33,922 nucleotides of DNA, taken from IMG/VR virus record IMGVR_UViG_2630968639_000008. One strand, given 5' to 3'. The position numbers were made by a program, and so were the translations under genes. The stretch comes from a virus (Duplodnaviria; Heunggongvirae; Uroviricota; Caudoviricetes). Position 1 is the first letter of the stretch; every line of letters begins with the position of its first letter. Positions 20,624 to 33,676 of the stretch are shown here, in pieces. The notes beneath the pieces are model-generated. The model did not search any database and was not told the DNA's origin. It was given only the letters and a program-made list of their open reading frames with translations.

Positions 20624-21007
20624 TTAATTAGAGTTATTAACAACGATATCCATCTCTAACCGGATATCTAATGCCATTAACATCCCTTCAATTATGCCCT
20701 CAGCCTTCTGTAACCTTTTCCCGATATAACCATCAGAGCAGCAATGCTTACCTGCCAGTGACATGAATGTCATACCGACTACATAATAATCTACTAATAA
20801 ATCGTGCAAATCGCTGTTGTTCTTTTTCAGACGGGCCATGCACCCGCAAATGATCATCGCGTCATCGTCACAACATTGCGGGCGAGATTTTACTTTTGAA
20901 GTAATTAATCCCTTAAAACCGGCGGCAATGGACGACCAGGTCACATCTTCATGATTATTAGCCGCCCACGCTCCCCAACGCTCAAGAACCATCTGAATAT
21001 CACGCAT
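20624..21007 (-). CDS. Q: Late-gene antiterminator Q (phage 82 / DLP12 QuuD-like)
   Basis: Trimmed to ATG 21007 ([21 protein letters not shown]...), 127 aa, Cys-rich ([27 protein letters not shown]); upstream of the lysis cassette on the same strand. Confidence 0.7.
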
Positions 21008-21229
21008 CAACTTACTCCACAAAAATCAGACCAGAACGCCAATTACAAGCAAAAATCAATAAAACAGTATTAGTTGATTGTTATCTCTGACTTCATACTC
21101 CTGCTCCTGTCAGGGTTTTGGCGTAATTCCTCAGTATTCGGTAATCGGTCAAAACAGAACTGGGGAAACGATATAAGCGCAGGCGCATCCAGCGGTGGCG
21201 AAGAAGTTCTGCCATATAAAACTCAAACA

Positions 21230-23934: not shown

Positions 23935-23962
23935 AAATAAAAAACCCAGCGCCAACTGGGTT
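23935..23962 (-). terminator. Rho-independent terminator after the secreted-protein gene
   Basis: Minus strand: stem AACCCAG / CTGGGTT with loop TTGGCG, followed by TTTTTTATTT; 17 nt downstream of the stop at 23980. Confidence 0.6.
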
Positions 23963-23979
23963 CATATGAAATTTTTTTG

Positions 23980-24474
23980 TCATTTCCAATTGCAAGACTG
24001 TGAAATTTTTTCCACAACCTTATCAATCTCAGACAAGTCAAACTCAACTACTTGCATAGTTGATCCATAAGGTTCAAACCCAAAAATAGCTTTTTTATGC
24101 TTAGCCAAGGTCTTTATAAATTGTATTGGTTGTGGAGCAAATGCAGAATCACCGCCTTCCCCACCACCCCAAACACTCTTGACCGGCTTTCCGCCATCTA
24201 ACCGCACTGTAATTCTTGGGTTGTCCGAACCCATATAATCATTGAATGATAAATAGGCATCTGTTTTGTTATCACTACAACGCAACACCAGTGAAGTTGC
24301 ACGATCAGTACCTGCTTTGTTATATGAATCTGGTGATAAATTAAGAGCCACAAAGTCAGTCTGGTCAGTCATTTTATTTATCTCAGACTTTGTTATCCAC
24401 GGCCCTAACTTCTCTACACCAGCATTTGCTGTAAACGAGGCACTTATGACAAAGGCTAAAATAAATTTTCTCAT
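23980..24474 (-). CDS. Hypothetical secreted/periplasmic protein (moron)
   Basis: 164-aa ORF with a signal peptide (MRKFILAFVISASFTANA/GVEK), AGGAGA RBS 8 nt upstream, own terminator; AT-rich. Confidence 0.6.
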   Translation of the reverse strand: MRKFILAFVISASFTANAGVEKLGPWITKSEINKMTDQTDFVALNLSPDSYNKAGTDRATSLVLRCSDNKTDAYLSFNDYMGSDNPRITVRLDGGKPVKSVWGGGEGGDSAFAPQPIQFIKTLAKHKKAIFGFEPYGSTMQVVEFDLSEIDKVVEKISQSCNWK

Positions 24475-25492: not shown

Positions 25493-26418
25493 AAATCCAC
25501 CCCGTAAATCCAGTCAGTGTTCGTCAGGTCGAGTTTTGGTTTGCCGGCTGTCACGCCAGCCTGTTGCTTGTTTCGGTTGATTTCGAGCTGGGTCCACTTG
25601 TCGCGGAGTTTGGCCGGACTCAGCACGTTACCGGACCAGAAGTTGTCCTGGCATGCCCAGCGGAACAGCACGCACATGTCGCGGTGGTTACGTCCGTCAC
25701 GTTCACGCATCAGGCGGATATCGTTAGCCCACCCTGCAAAATTCGGTTTTCTGGCTGATGGCGCGATGGTCTTCACCATGTCAAACATCCACTCTGCGGC
25801 GGTCAGGTCTTCTGCTGTCCCCCACTTGCTGCCACTCTGAATTGCAGCATCCGGTTTCACCACAGGAAGGTCGTTTTCTGGCTGGTCAGAGGATTCGCCA
25901 GAATTCTCGGACGAAAAAGGTTTTATATTGTCTTTTGTTAGTTTGTCTTTTGTGTTTACCTGATTCGGGTAAACGCCTTTACCTGATTTGGGTAAACTTT
26001 TCTTACCTGATTCAGGTAAATTTACCTCTTTCAGGTAAACTTTATTTTTCTTACCTGATTCGGGTAATGTTGACCATTCACTGACCACATTATTAATGCC
26101 GATATTTCGCCCGCTCTGAATAAGAATCCCACGCTTTACCAGAACGCTTTTTGCAGCAGAACACTTGTGCGGCAATATCCCGGTCAATTCGGAAAGTTGC
26201 TCGTTGCTCACCCAATCCAGTCTTTTATTAAAGCCATATGTTTTGCGCATGACAGCCAGGAAGACCAGAAGCTGGTGCTGTGTTAATCCGGCCAGCATCA
26301 CAGCTTCCAGCAACTCATTTGCAATGCGCGTATAACCATCGTCGAGATCTGCCACGCGCCGCTCCTTTTGTGCCACATCCGGCACTGGAAAATTGAATAT
26401 CTCAGCAGTGTTTGCCAT
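25489..26418 (-). CDS. O: Replication initiator O (lambda-like C-terminal domain, divergent N-terminal origin-binding domain)
   Basis: Trimmed to ATG 26418 (GGAGG upstream): MANTAEIFNF...; C-terminal ...KWGTAEDLTAAEWMFDMVKTIAPSARKPNFAGWANDIRLMRERDG...TNTDWIYGVDL matches lambda O; iterons lie inside the coding region. Confidence 0.85.
   Translation of the reverse strand: MANTAEIFNFPVPDVAQKERRVADLDDGYTRIANELLEAVMLAGLTQHQLLVFLAVMRKTYGFNKRLDWVSNEQLSELTGILPHKCSAAKSVLVKRGILIQSGRNIGINNVVSEWSTLPESGKKNKVYLKEVNLPESGKKSLPKSGKGVYPNQVNTKDKLTKDNIKPFSSENSGESSDQPENDLPVVKPDAAIQSGSKWGTAEDLTAAEWMFDMVKTIAPSARKPNFAGWANDIRLMRERDGRNHRDMCVLFRWACQDNFWSGNVLSPAKLRDKWTQLEINRNKQQAGVTAGKPKLDLTNTDWIYGVDL
25956..26067. repeat. 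Origin of replication: five 17-bp palindromic iterons (TTACC-N7-GGTAA) with adjacent AT-rich region 25921-25955
   Basis: Iterons at 25956-25972, 25979-25995, 26003-26019, 26022-26038, 26051-26067, inside O; an AT-rich tract follows in the O reading direction, as in ori-lambda. Confidence 0.75.
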
Positions 26419-26504
26419 AATTCCTCCCGCAATGAGTGTGTTACGATTTGCACCTGAAAGTCGGTTCTGTTCGCGCAGACCGGCTTTCGCCATTTCCGAA
26501 CCTG

Positions 26505-27050
26505 TCATATTGCCCCCAGCATGGTGGTGACCATCGCCATCAGTGGACCAGCCAAATCCGGGTCCACACGAAACATCGACACAATGCCTTCACTCATCTC
26601 CTTCAGTTTCTGGTGGCGTGGTGCGTTGAGAATGACAGCCTGTTTTGCCTCACTGAGTTCCTTTTCCATTTCAGCCAGCCGAGCCATGTAGCTATCCTGC
26701 TCAACCAGGTGGCCGCGATATTCCAGCGGTAGTACCGCCAGAATTGCCGGGGTCAGTTCACGCACGTTATTTCGGTATTTTTCAGAATCGAATTTGTTAT
26801 CGAGGAAGCGGAACAGCTTCTGGCGTGCACGGCTGACATCATCAGGGAAATCGATGGTGCCGCCGCCCTGCTCCCGATACTCATTCACAATGAGTGCGGC
26901 AACAACATCCTGATTATCTGCAGCCGACCAGGCGCGAACGGCATCACGGATTTTTTCGTGGCCTGGCGCCTGTTTTGTTTGAGAACGATTTATCACCGCA
27001 GTCGGGCTAAATCCGCTAGTCTGTTGGTATGTAAGTGGTTGCATAGTCAT
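26505..27050 (-). CDS. Hypothetical protein in the cII position (possibly YdaT-family)
   Basis: 181-aa ORF between cro and O on the early-right strand; not lambda CII-like in size or sequence; family assignment is a tentative recollection. Confidence 0.4.
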   Translation of the reverse strand: MTMQPLTYQQTSGFSPTAVINRSQTKQAPGHEKIRDAVRAWSAADNQDVVAALIVNEYREQGGGTIDFPDDVSRARQKLFRFLDNKFDSEKYRNNVRELTPAILAVLPLEYRGHLVEQDSYMARLAEMEKELSEAKQAVILNAPRHQKLKEMSEGIVSMFRVDPDLAGPLMAMVTTMLGAI

Positions 27051-27074
27051 TGCCTTATCAGTTAACGCCGCAGT

Positions 27075-27302
27075 TTAGGCGGCAGAATTACTCGCGTTAA
27101 ACAATGGTGCGAGGTCGGGACGAATATCTGCTGGTTTAATCTTTCCACCAGTGGCTGAGACAATTTTCATTACATAGCGGGCATCAATTCCGCCACCGTG
27201 TAGCCAACGCCAAACTGTGGGTTGGGCTACACCGCATAGATCTGCCAGTCGTTTTTGACTACCTGTAATACTGATTGCGAGTTGAATGGTTTGATTTGTC
27301 AT
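27075..27302 (-). CDS. cro: Cro-like HTH repressor (YdaS/Cro family)
   Basis: 75 aa from ATG 27302; HTH region QKRLADLCGVAQPTVWRWL; divergent from cI across the operator region. Confidence 0.7.
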   Translation of the reverse strand: MTNQTIQLAISITGSQKRLADLCGVAQPTVWRWLHGGGIDARYVMKIVSATGGKIKPADIRPDLAPLFNASNSAA

Positions 27303-27412
27303 TATCAATTCCTATTGGTATTGCAATGAATAAATAATAGCAATGCGTATTAACCCAAGCAATAGCAAAACGTGTTTTGACCATCAATACGCAAGCGTAT
27401 AAATTAAAACTT
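27303..27412. promoter_or_regulatory. Right operator/promoter region (OR): three related 14-bp operator sites with candidate pR and pRM
   Basis: Sites ATAGCAATGCGTAT (27337-27350), ATAGCAAAACGTGT (27362-27375), ATACGCAAGCGTAT (27387-27400, perfect palindrome), spaced 25 bp. Candidate pR on minus strand: -35 TTGCTT (27362..27357), 17-bp spacer, -10 TATTAT (27339..27334). Candidate pRM on plus strand: -35 TTGACC (27377-27382), -10 TAAATT (27400-27405), placing the start near the cI ATG. Confidence 0.6.
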
Positions 27413-28105
27413 ATGAAAAAAGAAACTCTTGCTGATCGCTTAAACCTAGCGATGGAACAATCTGGAATGTCTCAAGGCGCTCTTGCAAAGGCGTCTGGCG
27501 TAGCTCAACCCACAATCTGGAGACTGACAAGCGGCAACGCGCGCGGCTCAACAAAAATTGTTGAAATAGCTAATGCATTGGGTGTTCGAACAGAATGGCT
27601 CTCATCAGGCATAGGCCCGATGAGAAATGACGGTCAACAATCAGGGAAGCCTGCTGTCAGCCATTCAAAATACTTCAAGATTGACGTTCTTGATATAGAA
27701 GTCAGTGCCGGACCGGGTGTCATCAACCGTGAGTTTGTGGAAGTTCTACGCTCGGTTGAGTACTCGTTTGACGATGCTCGTCACATGTTCGATGGCAGGA
27801 AGGCGGAAAATATCCGCATTATTAACGTGCGCGGTGACAGCATGTCAGGGACGATCGAACCAGGTGACCTGCTGTTCGTTGATATCACTGTTAAATCTTT
27901 CGACGGTGATGGCATCTATGCGTTTCTGTACGACGACACTGCCCATGTAAAACGTCTTCAAATGATGAAGGATAAGCTGCTGGTTATCTCTGATAACAAG
28001 AGCTACTCGCCGTGGGACCCGATCGAGAAAGACGAGATGAACCGGGTGTTCATATTCGGTAAGGTCATTGGAAGCATGCCGCAGACGTACAGGAAGCATG
28101 GTTAA
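27413..28105 (+). CDS. cI: CI-type prophage repressor (HTH plus S24 LexA-like autopeptidase domain)
   Basis: 230 aa from ATG 27413; N-terminal HTH (MSQGALAKASGVAQPTIWRL); Ala-Gly cleavage site (EVSAGPGV), Ser in RGDSMSG and Lys in HVKRLQ; divergent from cro. Confidence 0.85.
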   Translation: MKKETLADRLNLAMEQSGMSQGALAKASGVAQPTIWRLTSGNARGSTKIVEIANALGVRTEWLSSGIGPMRNDGQQSGKPAVSHSKYFKIDVLDIEVSAGPGVINREFVEVLRSVEYSFDDARHMFDGRKAENIRIINVRGDSMSGTIEPGDLLFVDITVKSFDGDGIYAFLYDDTAHVKRLQMMKDKLLVISDNKSYSPWDPIEKDEMNRVFIFGKVIGSMPQTYRKHG

Positions 28106-28334
28106 TTTATCTACGACTTAAGGGAGCGAAGGTTAAGGTTTATACCACTCGGATTAGATATTGCACTAAATTCTCTATAAGAACGCCAAATCTGTTTGCA
28201 TATTTCAGTAAATATTCTCGTTGTTAGCTGAGATTTGTTGCTACTGTCAGCAAAATGTCCCCCTATCTCGTAGCGGTTTTTATTTCGAATCATTATGTTA
28301 AGATGTTTCTGATTATAATGAATGGAAACATAAA

Positions 28335-28715
28335 ATGAGAAAAATCCTAATCGCTGCCATGATGGCATCTCTATTGGCTGGGTGTGCTTCTTCAGGCAAC
28401 CAGCAACTCAAAAATGAAACTGAAACTAGTGTCCAGTCTAAACTTCAGGAAGGTAAAACAACCAAGAATGAGGTTAAATCTTACTTTGGTTCTCCTGATG
28501 CTGTTTCATATACTGACAGTGGAAACGAGATCTGGAAGTACGCCTTTGCAAAAGTAAAAGTTAATGGCACCACTTTTATTCCATTCTATGGATTATTCCA
28601 TAATGGAACGAACGGTACGAAAAAAGAACTTACTATTCTTTTTAACGATGACACGATTAAGAAATACACAATGTCAGAAACCCAAATAAACTCGAAATCA
28701 GGTTGGGCTGACTGA
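28335..28715 (+). CDS. Hypothetical lipoprotein downstream of cI (rex-position moron)
   Basis: 126 aa; signal peptide and lipobox (LLAGC); AT-rich; same strand as cI; followed by a terminator; mid-region resembles a BamE/SmpA_OmlA-like fold only loosely. Confidence 0.6.
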   Translation: MRKILIAAMMASLLAGCASSGNQQLKNETETSVQSKLQEGKTTKNEVKSYFGSPDAVSYTDSGNEIWKYAFAKVKVNGTTFIPFYGLFHNGTNGTKKELTILFNDDTIKKYTMSETQINSKSGWAD

Positions 28716-28723
28716 TAATCATA

Positions 28724-28750
28724 CCCGGCAACCGCGCCGGGTTTTCTTTT
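28724..28750 (+). terminator. Rho-independent terminator after the lipoprotein gene
   Basis: Stem CCCGGC / GCCGGG (28724-28729, 28736-28741) followed by TTTTCTTTT. Confidence 0.65.
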
Positions 28751-28832
28751 CCTCCCCCTCATAACTCATACCGTCCAAAAAACCACCACACCTCACTTCA
28801 GTTATCGCTATGCGATTCAAGTCACAAAATTA

Positions 28833-28918
28833 ATTCTTTTTGCTATCAAACATTTAATATCAAAACACATCAACTAATAGCAATAAGTATTGATATCACC
28901 AATAGCAATAGCTATTAT
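28833..28918. promoter_or_regulatory. Left operator/promoter region (OL) with candidate pL
   Basis: Operator-like sites ATAGCAATAAGTAT (28877-28890) and ATAGCAATAGCTAT (28902-28915), 25 bp apart, plus an inverted copy ATAGCAAAAAGAAT (minus, 28846..28833). Candidate pL: -35 TTGATA (28890-28895), 17-bp spacer, -10 TATTAT (28913-28918), overlapping the operators. Confidence 0.55.
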
Positions 28919-29024
28919 CACCATATCGCAACAACACAACGATACGGCAACCACCTGATTCACCGTTGCGATGACCGCTTAGATCCGCAGCTTGAATTTC
29001 AGCTGGCTTCGGGGAGTGCGAGGG

Positions 29025-29402
29025 ATGAAACGGACGCGTGAACGTCGGTGTGACCAGCTGAAATCAACTCAACATTTCATACCTCAGTCGCTTCAACGAG
29101 GCGGCTTAGTTATGACAACCGGCGGCCATCCACCGCCTGAATACGCGCAGAAGTCTCTATATGTTCAGCAGCCCAGCTTACGGGCAGGAGTTTTTATGGT
29201 TCATCAACATTACGGAACACAGACCGTTAATCGCGGCGCGGTCATGCCAGGAATGCTGGTCAAACACAAAGATGGTACCTGGACTGCATCAGCTAATTTA
29301 CGCGGACGGCTTTATCTGCATCGCGGCATCGAGCGCACTTATACCCGTGATTTGCTCGTGGAAGTTTTTCTCGACGGACGCGGTAACGGCCTGAATCACT
29401 AA
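29025..29402 (+). CDS. Hypothetical first protein of the early-left operon (N position; not clearly N-like)
   Basis: The track ORF begins at TTG 28992; first ATG is 29025 (MKRTRERRCDQ...), Arg-rich N-terminus but the rest does not resemble N; the stop is immediately upstream of the gam leader. Confidence 0.35.
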   Translation: MKRTRERRCDQLKSTQHFIPQSLQRGGLVMTTGGHPPPEYAQKSLYVQQPSLRAGVFMVHQHYGTQTVNRGAVMPGMLVKHKDGTWTASANLRGRLYLHRGIERTYTRDLLVEVFLDGRGNGLNH

Positions 29403-29478
29403 CCCCCCTTTCCTGTTTTCCTAATCAGCCTGGCATTTCGCGGGCGATATTTTCACAGCCATTTTCAGGAGTTCAGCC

Positions 29479-29775
29479 ATGAACGCTTATTACATTCAGG
29501 ATCGTCTTGAGGCTCAGAGCTGGGCGCGTCACTACCAGCAGCTCGCCCGTGAAGAGAAAGAGGCAGAACTGGCAGACGACATGGAAAAAAGCCTGCCCCA
29601 GCACCTGTTTGAATCGCTATGCATCGATCATTTGCAACGCCACGGGGCCAGCAAAAAAGCCATTACCCGTGCGTTCGATGACGATGTTGAGTTTCAGGAG
29701 CGCATGGCAGAACACATCCGGTACATGGTTGAAACCATTGCTCACCATCAGGTTGATATTGATTCAGAGGTATAA
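29479..29775 (+). CDS. gam: Gam (RecBCD inhibitor), 98-aa GamS form
   Basis: [37 protein letters not shown]...; matches lambda Gam. Confidence 0.9.
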
Positions 29776-29780
29776 AACGG

Positions 29781-30566
29781 ATGAGTACAGCACTCGCAAC
29801 GCTGGCAGGGAAGCTGGCTGAACGTGTCGGCATGGATTCTGTCGACCCACAGGAACTGATCACCACTCTTCGCCAGACGGCATTTAAAGGTGATGCCAGC
29901 GATGCGCAGTTCATCGCATTGTTGATCGTCGCCAACCAGTACGGCCTTAATCCGTGGACGAAAGAAATTTACGCCTTCCCTGATAAGCAGAACGGCATCG
30001 TTCCGGTGGTGGGCGTTGATGGCTGGTCCCGCATCATCAATGAAAACCAGCAGTTTGATGGCATGGACTTTGAGCAGGACAATGAATCCTGTACATGCCG
30101 GATTTACCGCAAGGACCGCAATCATCCGATCTGCGTTACCGAGTGGATGGATGAATGCCGCCGCGAACCATTCAAAACCCGCGAAGGCAGAGAAATCACG
30201 GGGCCGTGGCAGTCGCATCCCAAACGGATGTTACGGCATAAAGCCATGATTCAGTGTGCCCGTCTGGCCTTCGGATTTGCTGGTATCTATGACAAGGATG
30301 AAGCCGAGCGCATTGTCGAAAATACTGCATACACTGCAGAACGTCAGCCGGAACGCGACATCACTCCGGTTAACGATGAAACCATGCAGGAGATTAACAC
30401 TCTGCTGATCGCCCTGGATAAAACATGGGATGACGACTTATTGCCGCTCTGTTCCCAGATATTTCGCCGCGACATTCGCGCATCGTCAGAACTGACACAG
30501 GCCGAAGCAGTGAAAGCTCTTGGATTCCTGAAACAGAAAGCCACTGAGCAGAAGGTGGCAGCATGA
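29781..30566 (+). CDS. bet: Bet (Red-beta single-strand annealing protein)
   Basis: 261-aa ORF matching lambda Bet. Confidence 0.92.
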
Positions 30567-31243
30567 TACCGGACATTATCCTGCAGCGTACCGGGATCGA
30601 CGTGAGAGCTGTCGAACAGGGGGATGATGCATGGCACAAATTACGGCTCGGCGTCATCACCGCTTCAGAAGTTCACAACGTGATAGCAAAGCCCCGCTCA
30701 GGAAAGAAGTGGCCTGACATGAAAATGTCCTACTTCCACACCCTGCTGGCTGAGGTTTGCACCGGTGTGGCTCCGGAAGTTAATGCTAAGGCGCTGGCCT
30801 GGGGAAAACAGTACGAGAACGACGCCAGAACCCTGTTTGAATTCACTTCCGGCGTGAATGTTACTGAATCCCCGATCATCTATCGCGACGAAAGTATGCG
30901 CACCGCCTGCTCTCCCGATGGTTTATGCAGTGACGGCAACGGCCTTGAACTGAAATGCCCGTTTACCTCCCGGGATTTCATGAAATTCCGGCTCGGTGGT
31001 TTCGAGGCCATAAAGTCGGCTTACATGGCCCAGGTGCAGTACAGCATGTGGGTGACGCGAAAAGATGCCTGGTACTTTGCCAACTATGACCCACGAATGA
31101 AGCGTGAAGGCCTGCATTATGTCGTGGTTGAGCGGGATGAAAATTACATGGCGAGTTTTGACGAGATGGTGCCGGAGTTCATCGAAAAAATGGACGAGGC
31201 ACTGGCTGAAATTGGTTTTGTATTTGGGGAGCAATGGCGATGA
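30563..31243 (+). CDS. exo: Exo (Red-alpha 5'-3' exonuclease)
   Basis: 226-aa ORF matching lambda Exo; ATGA overlap with bet. Confidence 0.92.
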
Positions 31244-31878: not shown

Positions 31879-31976
31879 GCATGAAAAACAAAATCATCAT
31901 GGAGCTACAGGCTCCTTTTTTATTATTCGCATTCACCCTCAAGCGTATTAACCAACAATTCATGGATTAATGAAAG

Positions 31977-33601: not shown

Positions 33602-33676
33602 GCCTCACACTCGATGAGGCATTTTCATTTATCAAGATATCCAGACCTACCATCGCCGCATCAATGCGGTTTTTTT
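33602..33676 (+). terminator. Tandem rho-independent terminator hairpins
   Basis: GCCTCA / TGAGGC (33602-33607, 33615-33620) followed by ATTTTCATTT; CCGCA / TGCGG (33656-33660, 33665-33669) followed by TTTTTTT. Confidence 0.55.

Follow-up and report, generated by a model that had tools for sequence, protein, structure and literature searches.

How is the early-left operon of a lambda-like prophage transcribed when almost no room is left between its leftward promoter and its recombination genes? The window analysed here, the whole 33,922-nt stretch of the IMG/VR virus record IMGVR_UViG_2630968639_000008, raises this question. Its pL, recognized by promoter scan as TTGATA-17-TATTAT at 28890-28918 (-35 at 28890-28895, -10 at 28913-28918), lies only about 560 bp from the start of gam at 29479, which bears out the short early-left region reported in a preliminary description of this DNA, and the gap is filled by a single ORF running from TTG 28992 or ATG 29025 to 29402. 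That description saw in the ORF an unknown protein in the N position, perhaps a very divergent N, with a nut-like site just upstream of it, and offered as a second alternative that early-left antitermination works differently in this phage.

The window is a lambda-like prophage in which replication, Q, lysis and morphogenesis genes are all present. On the minus strand, cII is followed by O, P, ninB, rusA, Q, the lysis genes and the morphogenesis genes; on the plus strand, homologues of lambda orf60a/63/61, a DksA-like gene and xis lie 3' of exo (Table 1). The 53-nt operator-bearing repeat that holds pL matches OR at 27332-27384. The pL transcript should start near 28925, and it is here, at the pL start, that homology to prophages of other immunity types breaks off. 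The comparisons show the order of the region to be pL, a 271-nt untranslated leader, kil and gam-bet-exo. Between cI and OL sits a lipoprotein moron, in the position that rexAB has in lambda; its product gives a weak BamE-domain match (E 1.4e-4), and relatives carry other cargo in this slot, for example a SIR2-family gene in locus L006.

Such a compact region could also be the scar of a deletion that removed N, cIII and their neighbours from a now defective prophage, a possibility raised in the preliminary description, and the mosaic junction in the leader does fall exactly where relatives carry a terminator hairpin with its T-run. We nevertheless regard a scar as very improbable. The leader-kil-gam module occurs in 2210 of 5426 complete E. 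coli genomes (41%), joined to various immunity regions, including those of O104:H4 and O157:H7 strains, and the identical layout is found in isolated, propagating phages (Perceval, 4A7, the PhiR series and Turner), with 96% identity across the region in PhiR70_1, 4A7, Lambda_4C10 and Perceval (genus Bievrevirus); the layout is therefore no one-off scar. Against it stand also the full replication, Q, lysis and morphogenesis gene set of the window and the finding, developed below, that the sequence preceding the junction forms a separate module.

Table 1. Features of the window discussed in the text (positions in the 33,922-nt stretch)
Feature	Position	Strand	Basis or remarks
Q	20624-21022	-	
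Strong intrinsic terminator, pR operon	23942-23963	-	Terminator scan; before ninB...Q
cII, YdaT-type	27050-26505	-	
cro, YdaS-type	27308-27075	-	
cI	27377-28105	+	S24 peptidase plus HTH
Lipoprotein moron	28335-28715	+	Own terminator 28723-28742; between cI and OL
OL operators with pL	28872-28924	+	Direct repeat with OR; promoter scan
CA-rich pL-proximal leader, lineage-specific	28925-28972	+	Only in close relatives
Conserved 91-nt RNA cassette, candidate cis-acting antitermination element	28973-29063	+	Covariance model; two clades
Stem-loop I	28976-29020	+	Core helix P1: CCGCAGC 28985-28991 paired with GCTTCGG 29006-29012
Hairpin CAGCT-N8-AGCTG of the preliminary description	28988-29005	+	One base from the earlier placement; inside stem-loop I
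Spurious 5' extension of the kil frame, no gene	28992-29195	+	No family match; RefSeq blank
Stem-loop II	29021-29059	+	Core helix P2: ACGGACG 29030-29036 paired with CGTCGGT 29043-29049
Mosaic junction	29064-29077	+	ATCAACTCAACA then TTT; in relatives, an intrinsic terminator hairpin plus T-run
Conserved “post-tL1” block	29078-29195	+	CATACC, hairpin A, TTATGA, hairpin B, GCGCAGAAGTCT, small hairpin, kil Shine-Dalgarno sequence
Hairpin A	29086-29106	+	AGTCGCTTC-AAC-GAGGCGGCT
Hairpin B	29121-29137	+	GGCGG-CCATCCA-CCGCC, invariant
Conserved GCGCAGAAGTCT	29145-29156	+	In different reading frames in different copies
kil, 68-aa KilR/phi80-type FtsZ (cell division) inhibitor	29196-29402	+	phrog_294, NF008465, RefSeq
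gam	29479-29775	+	Pfam Gam, E 4e-64
bet	29781-30566	+	ORF list; Perceval annotation
exo	30563-31243	+	ORF list; Perceval annotation
First terminator-like hairpin with full T-run in the pL operon	31901-31915	+	GGAGCTACAGGCTCC TTTTTTATTA; terminator scan
Second pL-operon terminator, before xis	33655-33670	+	Terminator scan

The reading frame and the hairpin in the N position

Profile searches place the supposedly unknown protein in a known family that is not N. The PHROGs family phrog_294 (“Kil protein for bacterial septation inhibition”) matches it with E 2.4e-38, over residues 60-136 only of the 136-aa frame, and the 68-aa product that begins at ATG 29196 aligns from residue 1 to residue 68 with positions 1-70 of the NCBIfam profile NF008465 (FtsZ inhibitor, KilR; E 1.8e-17). 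Kil is the sole match in Pfam, PHROGs and NCBIfam, which show no membership of an N family, and the upstream 68 codons of the frame match no family in these three collections. Conservation of the ORF is limited to its last 68 codons, the internal ATG is preceded by a strong Shine-Dalgarno sequence (AGGAG, 29186-29190), and RefSeq annotates a 207-nt CDS, a “phage encoded cell division inhibitor”, with the upstream part left unannotated. Judged by these alignments, the gene is almost certainly kil with its start at ATG 29196. It resembles KilR of the Rac prophage and Kil of phi80 in its length, in its full-length match to both families and in its location just 5' of recombination genes; it is 41% identical to phi80 Kil, scores under the curated cut-off of the KilR subfamily (63 versus 92 bits), and on these figures belongs to a related subfamily. 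The 47-aa Kil of lambda is unrelated to it.

The part of the frame upstream of the ATG follows a different pattern. Klebsiella homologues of Kil begin MVHQHY or MVSHHY, and those of Enterobacter and Salmonella have a short unrelated sequence 5' of the conserved core. Phage Turner has a 1-nt deletion just before the start codon of kil, which puts the upstream codons out of phase but leaves kil itself intact; more generally, the link between the two runs via a small upstream ORF (uORF), whose frame is shifted by length differences in other copies, again with kil intact. The extension starts with GTG in most relatives and with GTG TAA in a sister clade of the leader. The Arg-rich N-terminus that had been noticed is indeed encoded in the window, but it arises because the CG-rich arms of an RNA hairpin are read as codons (CGG ACG CGT GAA CGT CGG comprises both arms), and the motif is missing or different in homologues, with the stop codon in its place in the sister clade.

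These comparative data refute the reading of ORF 29025-29402 as a strongly diverged N, with an Arg-rich N-terminus that would bind the hairpin upstream of it, and we give that reading next to no credence. MKRTRERR is loosely like the arginine-rich motif of lambda N, yet residues 69-136 of the same frame are Kil, the extension is blank in RefSeq and absent from distant homologues, its start is GTG or GTG-TAA in relatives, its only link to kil is a uORF frame broken there by indels, and relatives do not preserve the proposed hairpin. The question of the ORF thus has an ordinary answer, a known gene with a false start in a layout that is common and already annotated. Several deposited records (PV340577, OV696612, NC_049946, PP925837 and others) call Kil at 93-139 aa, or name it “membrane carboxypeptidase” or “hypothetical”. 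These calls are over-extensions of a conserved 68-aa gene, and the correction of the 125-139-aa Kil or hypothetical calls is useful whatever the leader proves to do.

The elements that had suggested a nut-like site are not borne out either. The boxA-like CGCTTAG, which lies at 28976-28982, one base from its earlier placement, occurs once in the window against 2.9 occurrences expected by chance. On the transcribed strands of 26400-29600 there is no consensus boxA (YGCTCTTWA, at most one mismatch) near pL or after cro, and the nut-site boxA consensus CGCTCTTA / TGCTCTTTAACAA is absent from both the pL and the pR transcripts in this interval. The accompanying hairpin, CAGCT-N8-AGCTG, does not form in the minimum-energy structure predicted for the leader. 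Its middle pair needs T at 29004; 17 of 19 distinct relatives have A there and cannot form it, and in the sister clade another of its pairs is also broken. A pattern scan with CTTGAATTTCAGCVGG, meant to leave out the window clade, showed that most of that clade has A against the window's T. This T creates the palindrome, together with a perfect 9-bp helix with 29055-29063, and shifts the predicted minimum-energy fold; it is found in the window and in locus L086, about 95% of relatives having A. BLAST finds no twin of the leader in the rest of the window, and neither BLAST nor a covariance model of the leader element finds one after cro, in the place of nutR. Rfam yields chance matches only, for the whole window at gathering thresholds and for 26400-29600 at E up to 10.

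With the N/nutL-nutR systems of lambda and phi80, then, the leader element shares a position downstream of pL, and with phi80 also the pL-proximal flank that sister-clade loci have and the block 5' of kil described below. The window differs in having no N gene, no boxA, no boxB-type hairpin and no matching site after cro, and we conclude that both an N gene and a nut site are very probably absent.

A leader built from two transferable modules

Alignment of the leader shows a mosaic of two transferable modules, a 91-nt cassette and a block at 29078-29195, preceded by a CA-rich stretch specific to the lineage. This stretch is the most variable part of the leader, a figure inflated by loci that have the immunity junction inside it.

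The cassette occupies about +48 to +140 of the transcript and is present in a single copy in the window (covariance model match, E 4.6e-29). It is 91 nt long in both clades in which it is found, aligns without gaps save for a 1-nt insertion in locus L030, and ends in a conserved tail, GTGTGACCAGCTGAAA. From the alignment alone, RNAalifold predicts two extended stem-loops (columns 4-48 and 49-87). P1, the core helix of the first, is paired in 100% of cells, one position being a conserved mismatch, and has two doubly compensated pairs between the clades (A-U to C-G and G-C to A-U); P2, the core helix of the second, has one. Single-sided changes in the two helices are all wobbles or fall at conserved mismatch positions, and a tentative loop-tail helix has one pair-breaking change. 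All three compensatory pairs come from one two-clade split, so that the covariation amounts to one event. The two-stem-loop fold is the minimum-energy structure for the majority window-clade sequence and for the sister-clade copy in locus L112, but not for the window's own sequence, in which T 29004 favours an alternative long-range helix, nor for an L170-type variant of the sister clade, and folding energies are no better than those of shuffled sequences (z -0.06 to -1.5). Within the window clade, variable columns make up 15 of 94 (16%) in the cassette versus 28 of 68 (41%) at third-codon positions of kil, and 26 of 76 positions vary in the kil-gam spacer; the low variation of the cassette is consistent with constraint on a non-coding element.

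A second line of evidence comes from where the cassette occurs. The copy in L112 is 81% identical and lies far from the counterpart of the 29078-29195 block. A targeted scan brings this sister clade up to 13 loci with at least three downstream contexts and identical 5' and 3' limits, and the boundaries of the cassette are exact in at least four flanking contexts. In the sister clade it precedes unrelated genes, an HNH gene among others, away from kil, and so is not tied to kil. Further pattern scans found no third clade, one pattern giving nothing and another only the sister clade; the covariance model R1, run on 200 of 224 other loci, retrieved only IS-split or truncated copies, and none in the right arms; and a scan of genome contigs with the 14-mer GGGGAGTGCGAGGG gave only random matches in unrelated phyla, the loci from it (L210-L329) being disregarded. 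In one E. coli prophage an IS3-family element (L007, 3108-4415) lies inside the cassette and splits stem-loop II. On balance, we think it probable that 28973-29063 is a discrete structured cassette.

The second module begins beyond the mosaic junction, which we read from alignments A1 and A2 and 100 unique copies. The block is represented by 207 copies, 82 of them unique, at about 200 IMG/VR loci, and a 60-nt stretch of it is common to phi80, HK225, HK639, Klebsiella KO-TP1, Enterobacter CobraSix and the P22-like Salmonella S9-5. In these six phages it lies directly 3' of an intrinsic terminator, which in phi80 is tL1A, immediately 3' of N; the genes that come after the block are of many kinds, and the terminator before it is absent only in the window clade and a few put-type loci (such as L024 and L192). 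These occurrences show that in other lambdoid phages the block follows a terminator located after N or after morons.

By recurring between varied genes in phages of Escherichia, Klebsiella, Enterobacter and Salmonella, the block resembles the mosaic “boundary” sequences of lambdoid phages. It differs from them in that hairpin A has at least eight alleles with compensatory changes and hairpin B is invariant, and because of this combination the hairpins point to a function at the RNA level over a mere recombination substrate. Between them lies an invariant TTATGA that includes the ATG (29112) of the uORF. We considered its product, MTTGGHPPP, as a conserved leader peptide and rejected it: four variants with 1-nt indels change the frame, and the conserved GCGCAGAAGTCT 3' of the uORF is read in differing frames, so that the peptide is not the main constraint, an argument weakened by the selection of the uORF frame sample by nucleotide pattern. 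Whatever their roles, the recognition of two discrete, widely shared non-coding modules in the pL operon is useful in itself.

The put/nut slot and possible roles of the cassette

What might the cassette do? In the sister clade it lies between AAGTGGAG and CGAGTTACCAGCAGCTCTTTGCGAGGGGCTGACGG, which also enclose the annotated “putL-like antiterminator RNA” of HK639, whose put was reportedly first described by King et al. in 2011; in phi80 it is the nutL boxA that follows the 5' flank AAGTGGAG. The 119 copies of this flank comprise 51 of boxA type, 42 of put type, 24 others (mostly boxA variants) and 2 of window type. The L112 operon runs from pL through the cassette to an HNH-orf and small ORFs, followed by at least three strong intrinsic terminators before kil/gam/recT, with neither an N-like ORF nor a boxA; in L170 an intrinsic terminator follows two ORFs. 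In the window, as in L112 and L170, no N-like ORF comes ahead of the first terminator. Because put, nut and the cassette alternate at one site just after pL, and because terminators lie downstream with no N-like ORF in L112 and L170, we tentatively suggest, at somewhat less than even confidence, that it may be a cis-acting antitermination RNA.

We envisage that the cassette, once in the nascent pL transcript, would serve as a processive antitermination element, in function the counterpart of put RNA in HK022 and HK639. Most likely it would need no phage protein for its action on RNA polymerase. Transcription from pL would then pass the two terminators downstream of exo in the window (Table 1) and the three or more that precede kil/gam/recT in the sister clade. 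In the window, no terminator precedes kil, gam, bet and exo, and their expression would call for no antitermination.

The put element is a precedent: about 70 nt long, with two stem-loops and with putL just downstream of PL, it acts alone on RNA polymerase via the beta' zinc-binding domain (PMC9378689). The cassette is of comparable size, is likewise predicted to form two stem-loops, sits in the pL leader of an N-less lambdoid phage with intrinsic terminators downstream and, in the sister clade, fills the HK639 putL slot between identical flanks. In sequence the two show no detectable similarity: comparison of the cassette with HK022 putL and putR and with HK639 putL gives scores of 19-23 against a null of 20-22 (put versus put, 52-74), and the core motif of the put consensus (GAACGGCGCG...GCGTCGG...CAGGAnGAnCGGCAAT) is absent from the window. 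A further difference is that HK022 has putR, whereas the window has no second copy of the element downstream of pR. The HK639 record annotates putL only, along with an unrelated “M3-like RNA” that finds no match in the window.

Several observations speak against antitermination and for another role, and the comparison behind the inference has little depth. The terminator scan of the window finds no terminator between pL and exo, so nothing before exo needs antitermination in the window clade. The cassette is single-copy, while the pR operon has a strong terminator before Q, following P and a moron for a secreted protein with a signal peptide (23980-24474); the covariance model finds no copy upstream of that terminator, and BLAST and the model with filters off find no twin anywhere on the pR-transcribed strand of the window, for whose right operon no antitermination element was detected. 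The cassette could instead be a 5'-UTR module, concerned with mRNA stability or processing, with control of kil translation or with sRNA/Hfq targeting, that travels by mosaic recombination merely as a neighbour of pL. The absence of similarity to put or nut and the non-significant fold z-scores fit this account, and Kil is toxic, which makes control at the leader level plausible. Yet sister-clade loci carry the cassette in place of put, with the junctions unchanged, and it stands there before unrelated genes and several strong terminators, away from kil; we judge the account without antitermination unlikely, though clearly not negligible.

Quite unlikely, in our view, is a nut-like site at which the cassette would recruit a protein, be it an unrecognised phage antiterminator from another locus or the host Nus complex. 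The cassette shares the phi80 nutL slot and has long invariant single-stranded stretches, GGAGTGCGAGGG and TTGAATTTC, that are possible protein-binding sites; moreover, a perfect boxA, CGCTCTTTAACAA, lies just after cro in 21 of 82 cassette-bearing loci, which have another cro type. This post-cro boxA hints at Nus-dependent signals in the group and keeps a factor-dependent reading alive. Against such a site, the cassette itself contains no boxA, the loci examined have no N-like ORF ahead of the first terminator, and in the window the gap between cro and cII is only 24 nt, without a boxA after cro. The loci with CGCTCTTTAACAA are N-less prophages of another immunity type, such as that of E. coli O104:H4 2009EL-2071, and no boxB-like hairpin lies 3' of the motif in them; in L005 (1600-1650, minus strand) it directly follows the cro stop, before a YdaT-type cII. 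In the window a hairpin, GCCGC-CTAAACT-GCGGC (27067-27083, minus strand), spans the cro stop in the tR1/nutR position; it is similar to GCCGCCTAACCAGCGGC, the common tL1 hairpin, but lacks a T-run.

The second alternative of the preliminary description, that early-left antitermination works differently in this phage, is plausible. It gains indirect support from a cassette that overlaps the position of the proposed nut-like site and in related phages occupies the put/nut slot; the caveat is that the shared slot is an argument from position, and that the region is highly mosaic. We infer that a discrete, structured 91-nt cassette in that slot is a testable candidate for such a mechanism. To our knowledge, put is the only RNA-only processive antiterminator family known in phages. 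A bolder and rather doubtful proposal is that the cassette founds a third kind of lambdoid early antitermination device, put-like in being protein-independent, unrelated to put in sequence, and carried just after pL by prophages in about 41% of complete E. coli genomes. Should the inference of antitermination hold, the cassette would join put as another, unrelated RNA able to modify RNA polymerase and would offer an independent handle on the control of elongation by nascent RNA, and it would explain how the early-left operon, xis and int included, operates without N in a very common type of E. coli prophage.

The early-left operon of L112 has two further features, a second, diverged terminator-plus-block unit (reverse strand, about 2100-2500) and a tRNA-like 3' fragment (GGTTCGAATCCGGAGCACTCCACCA).
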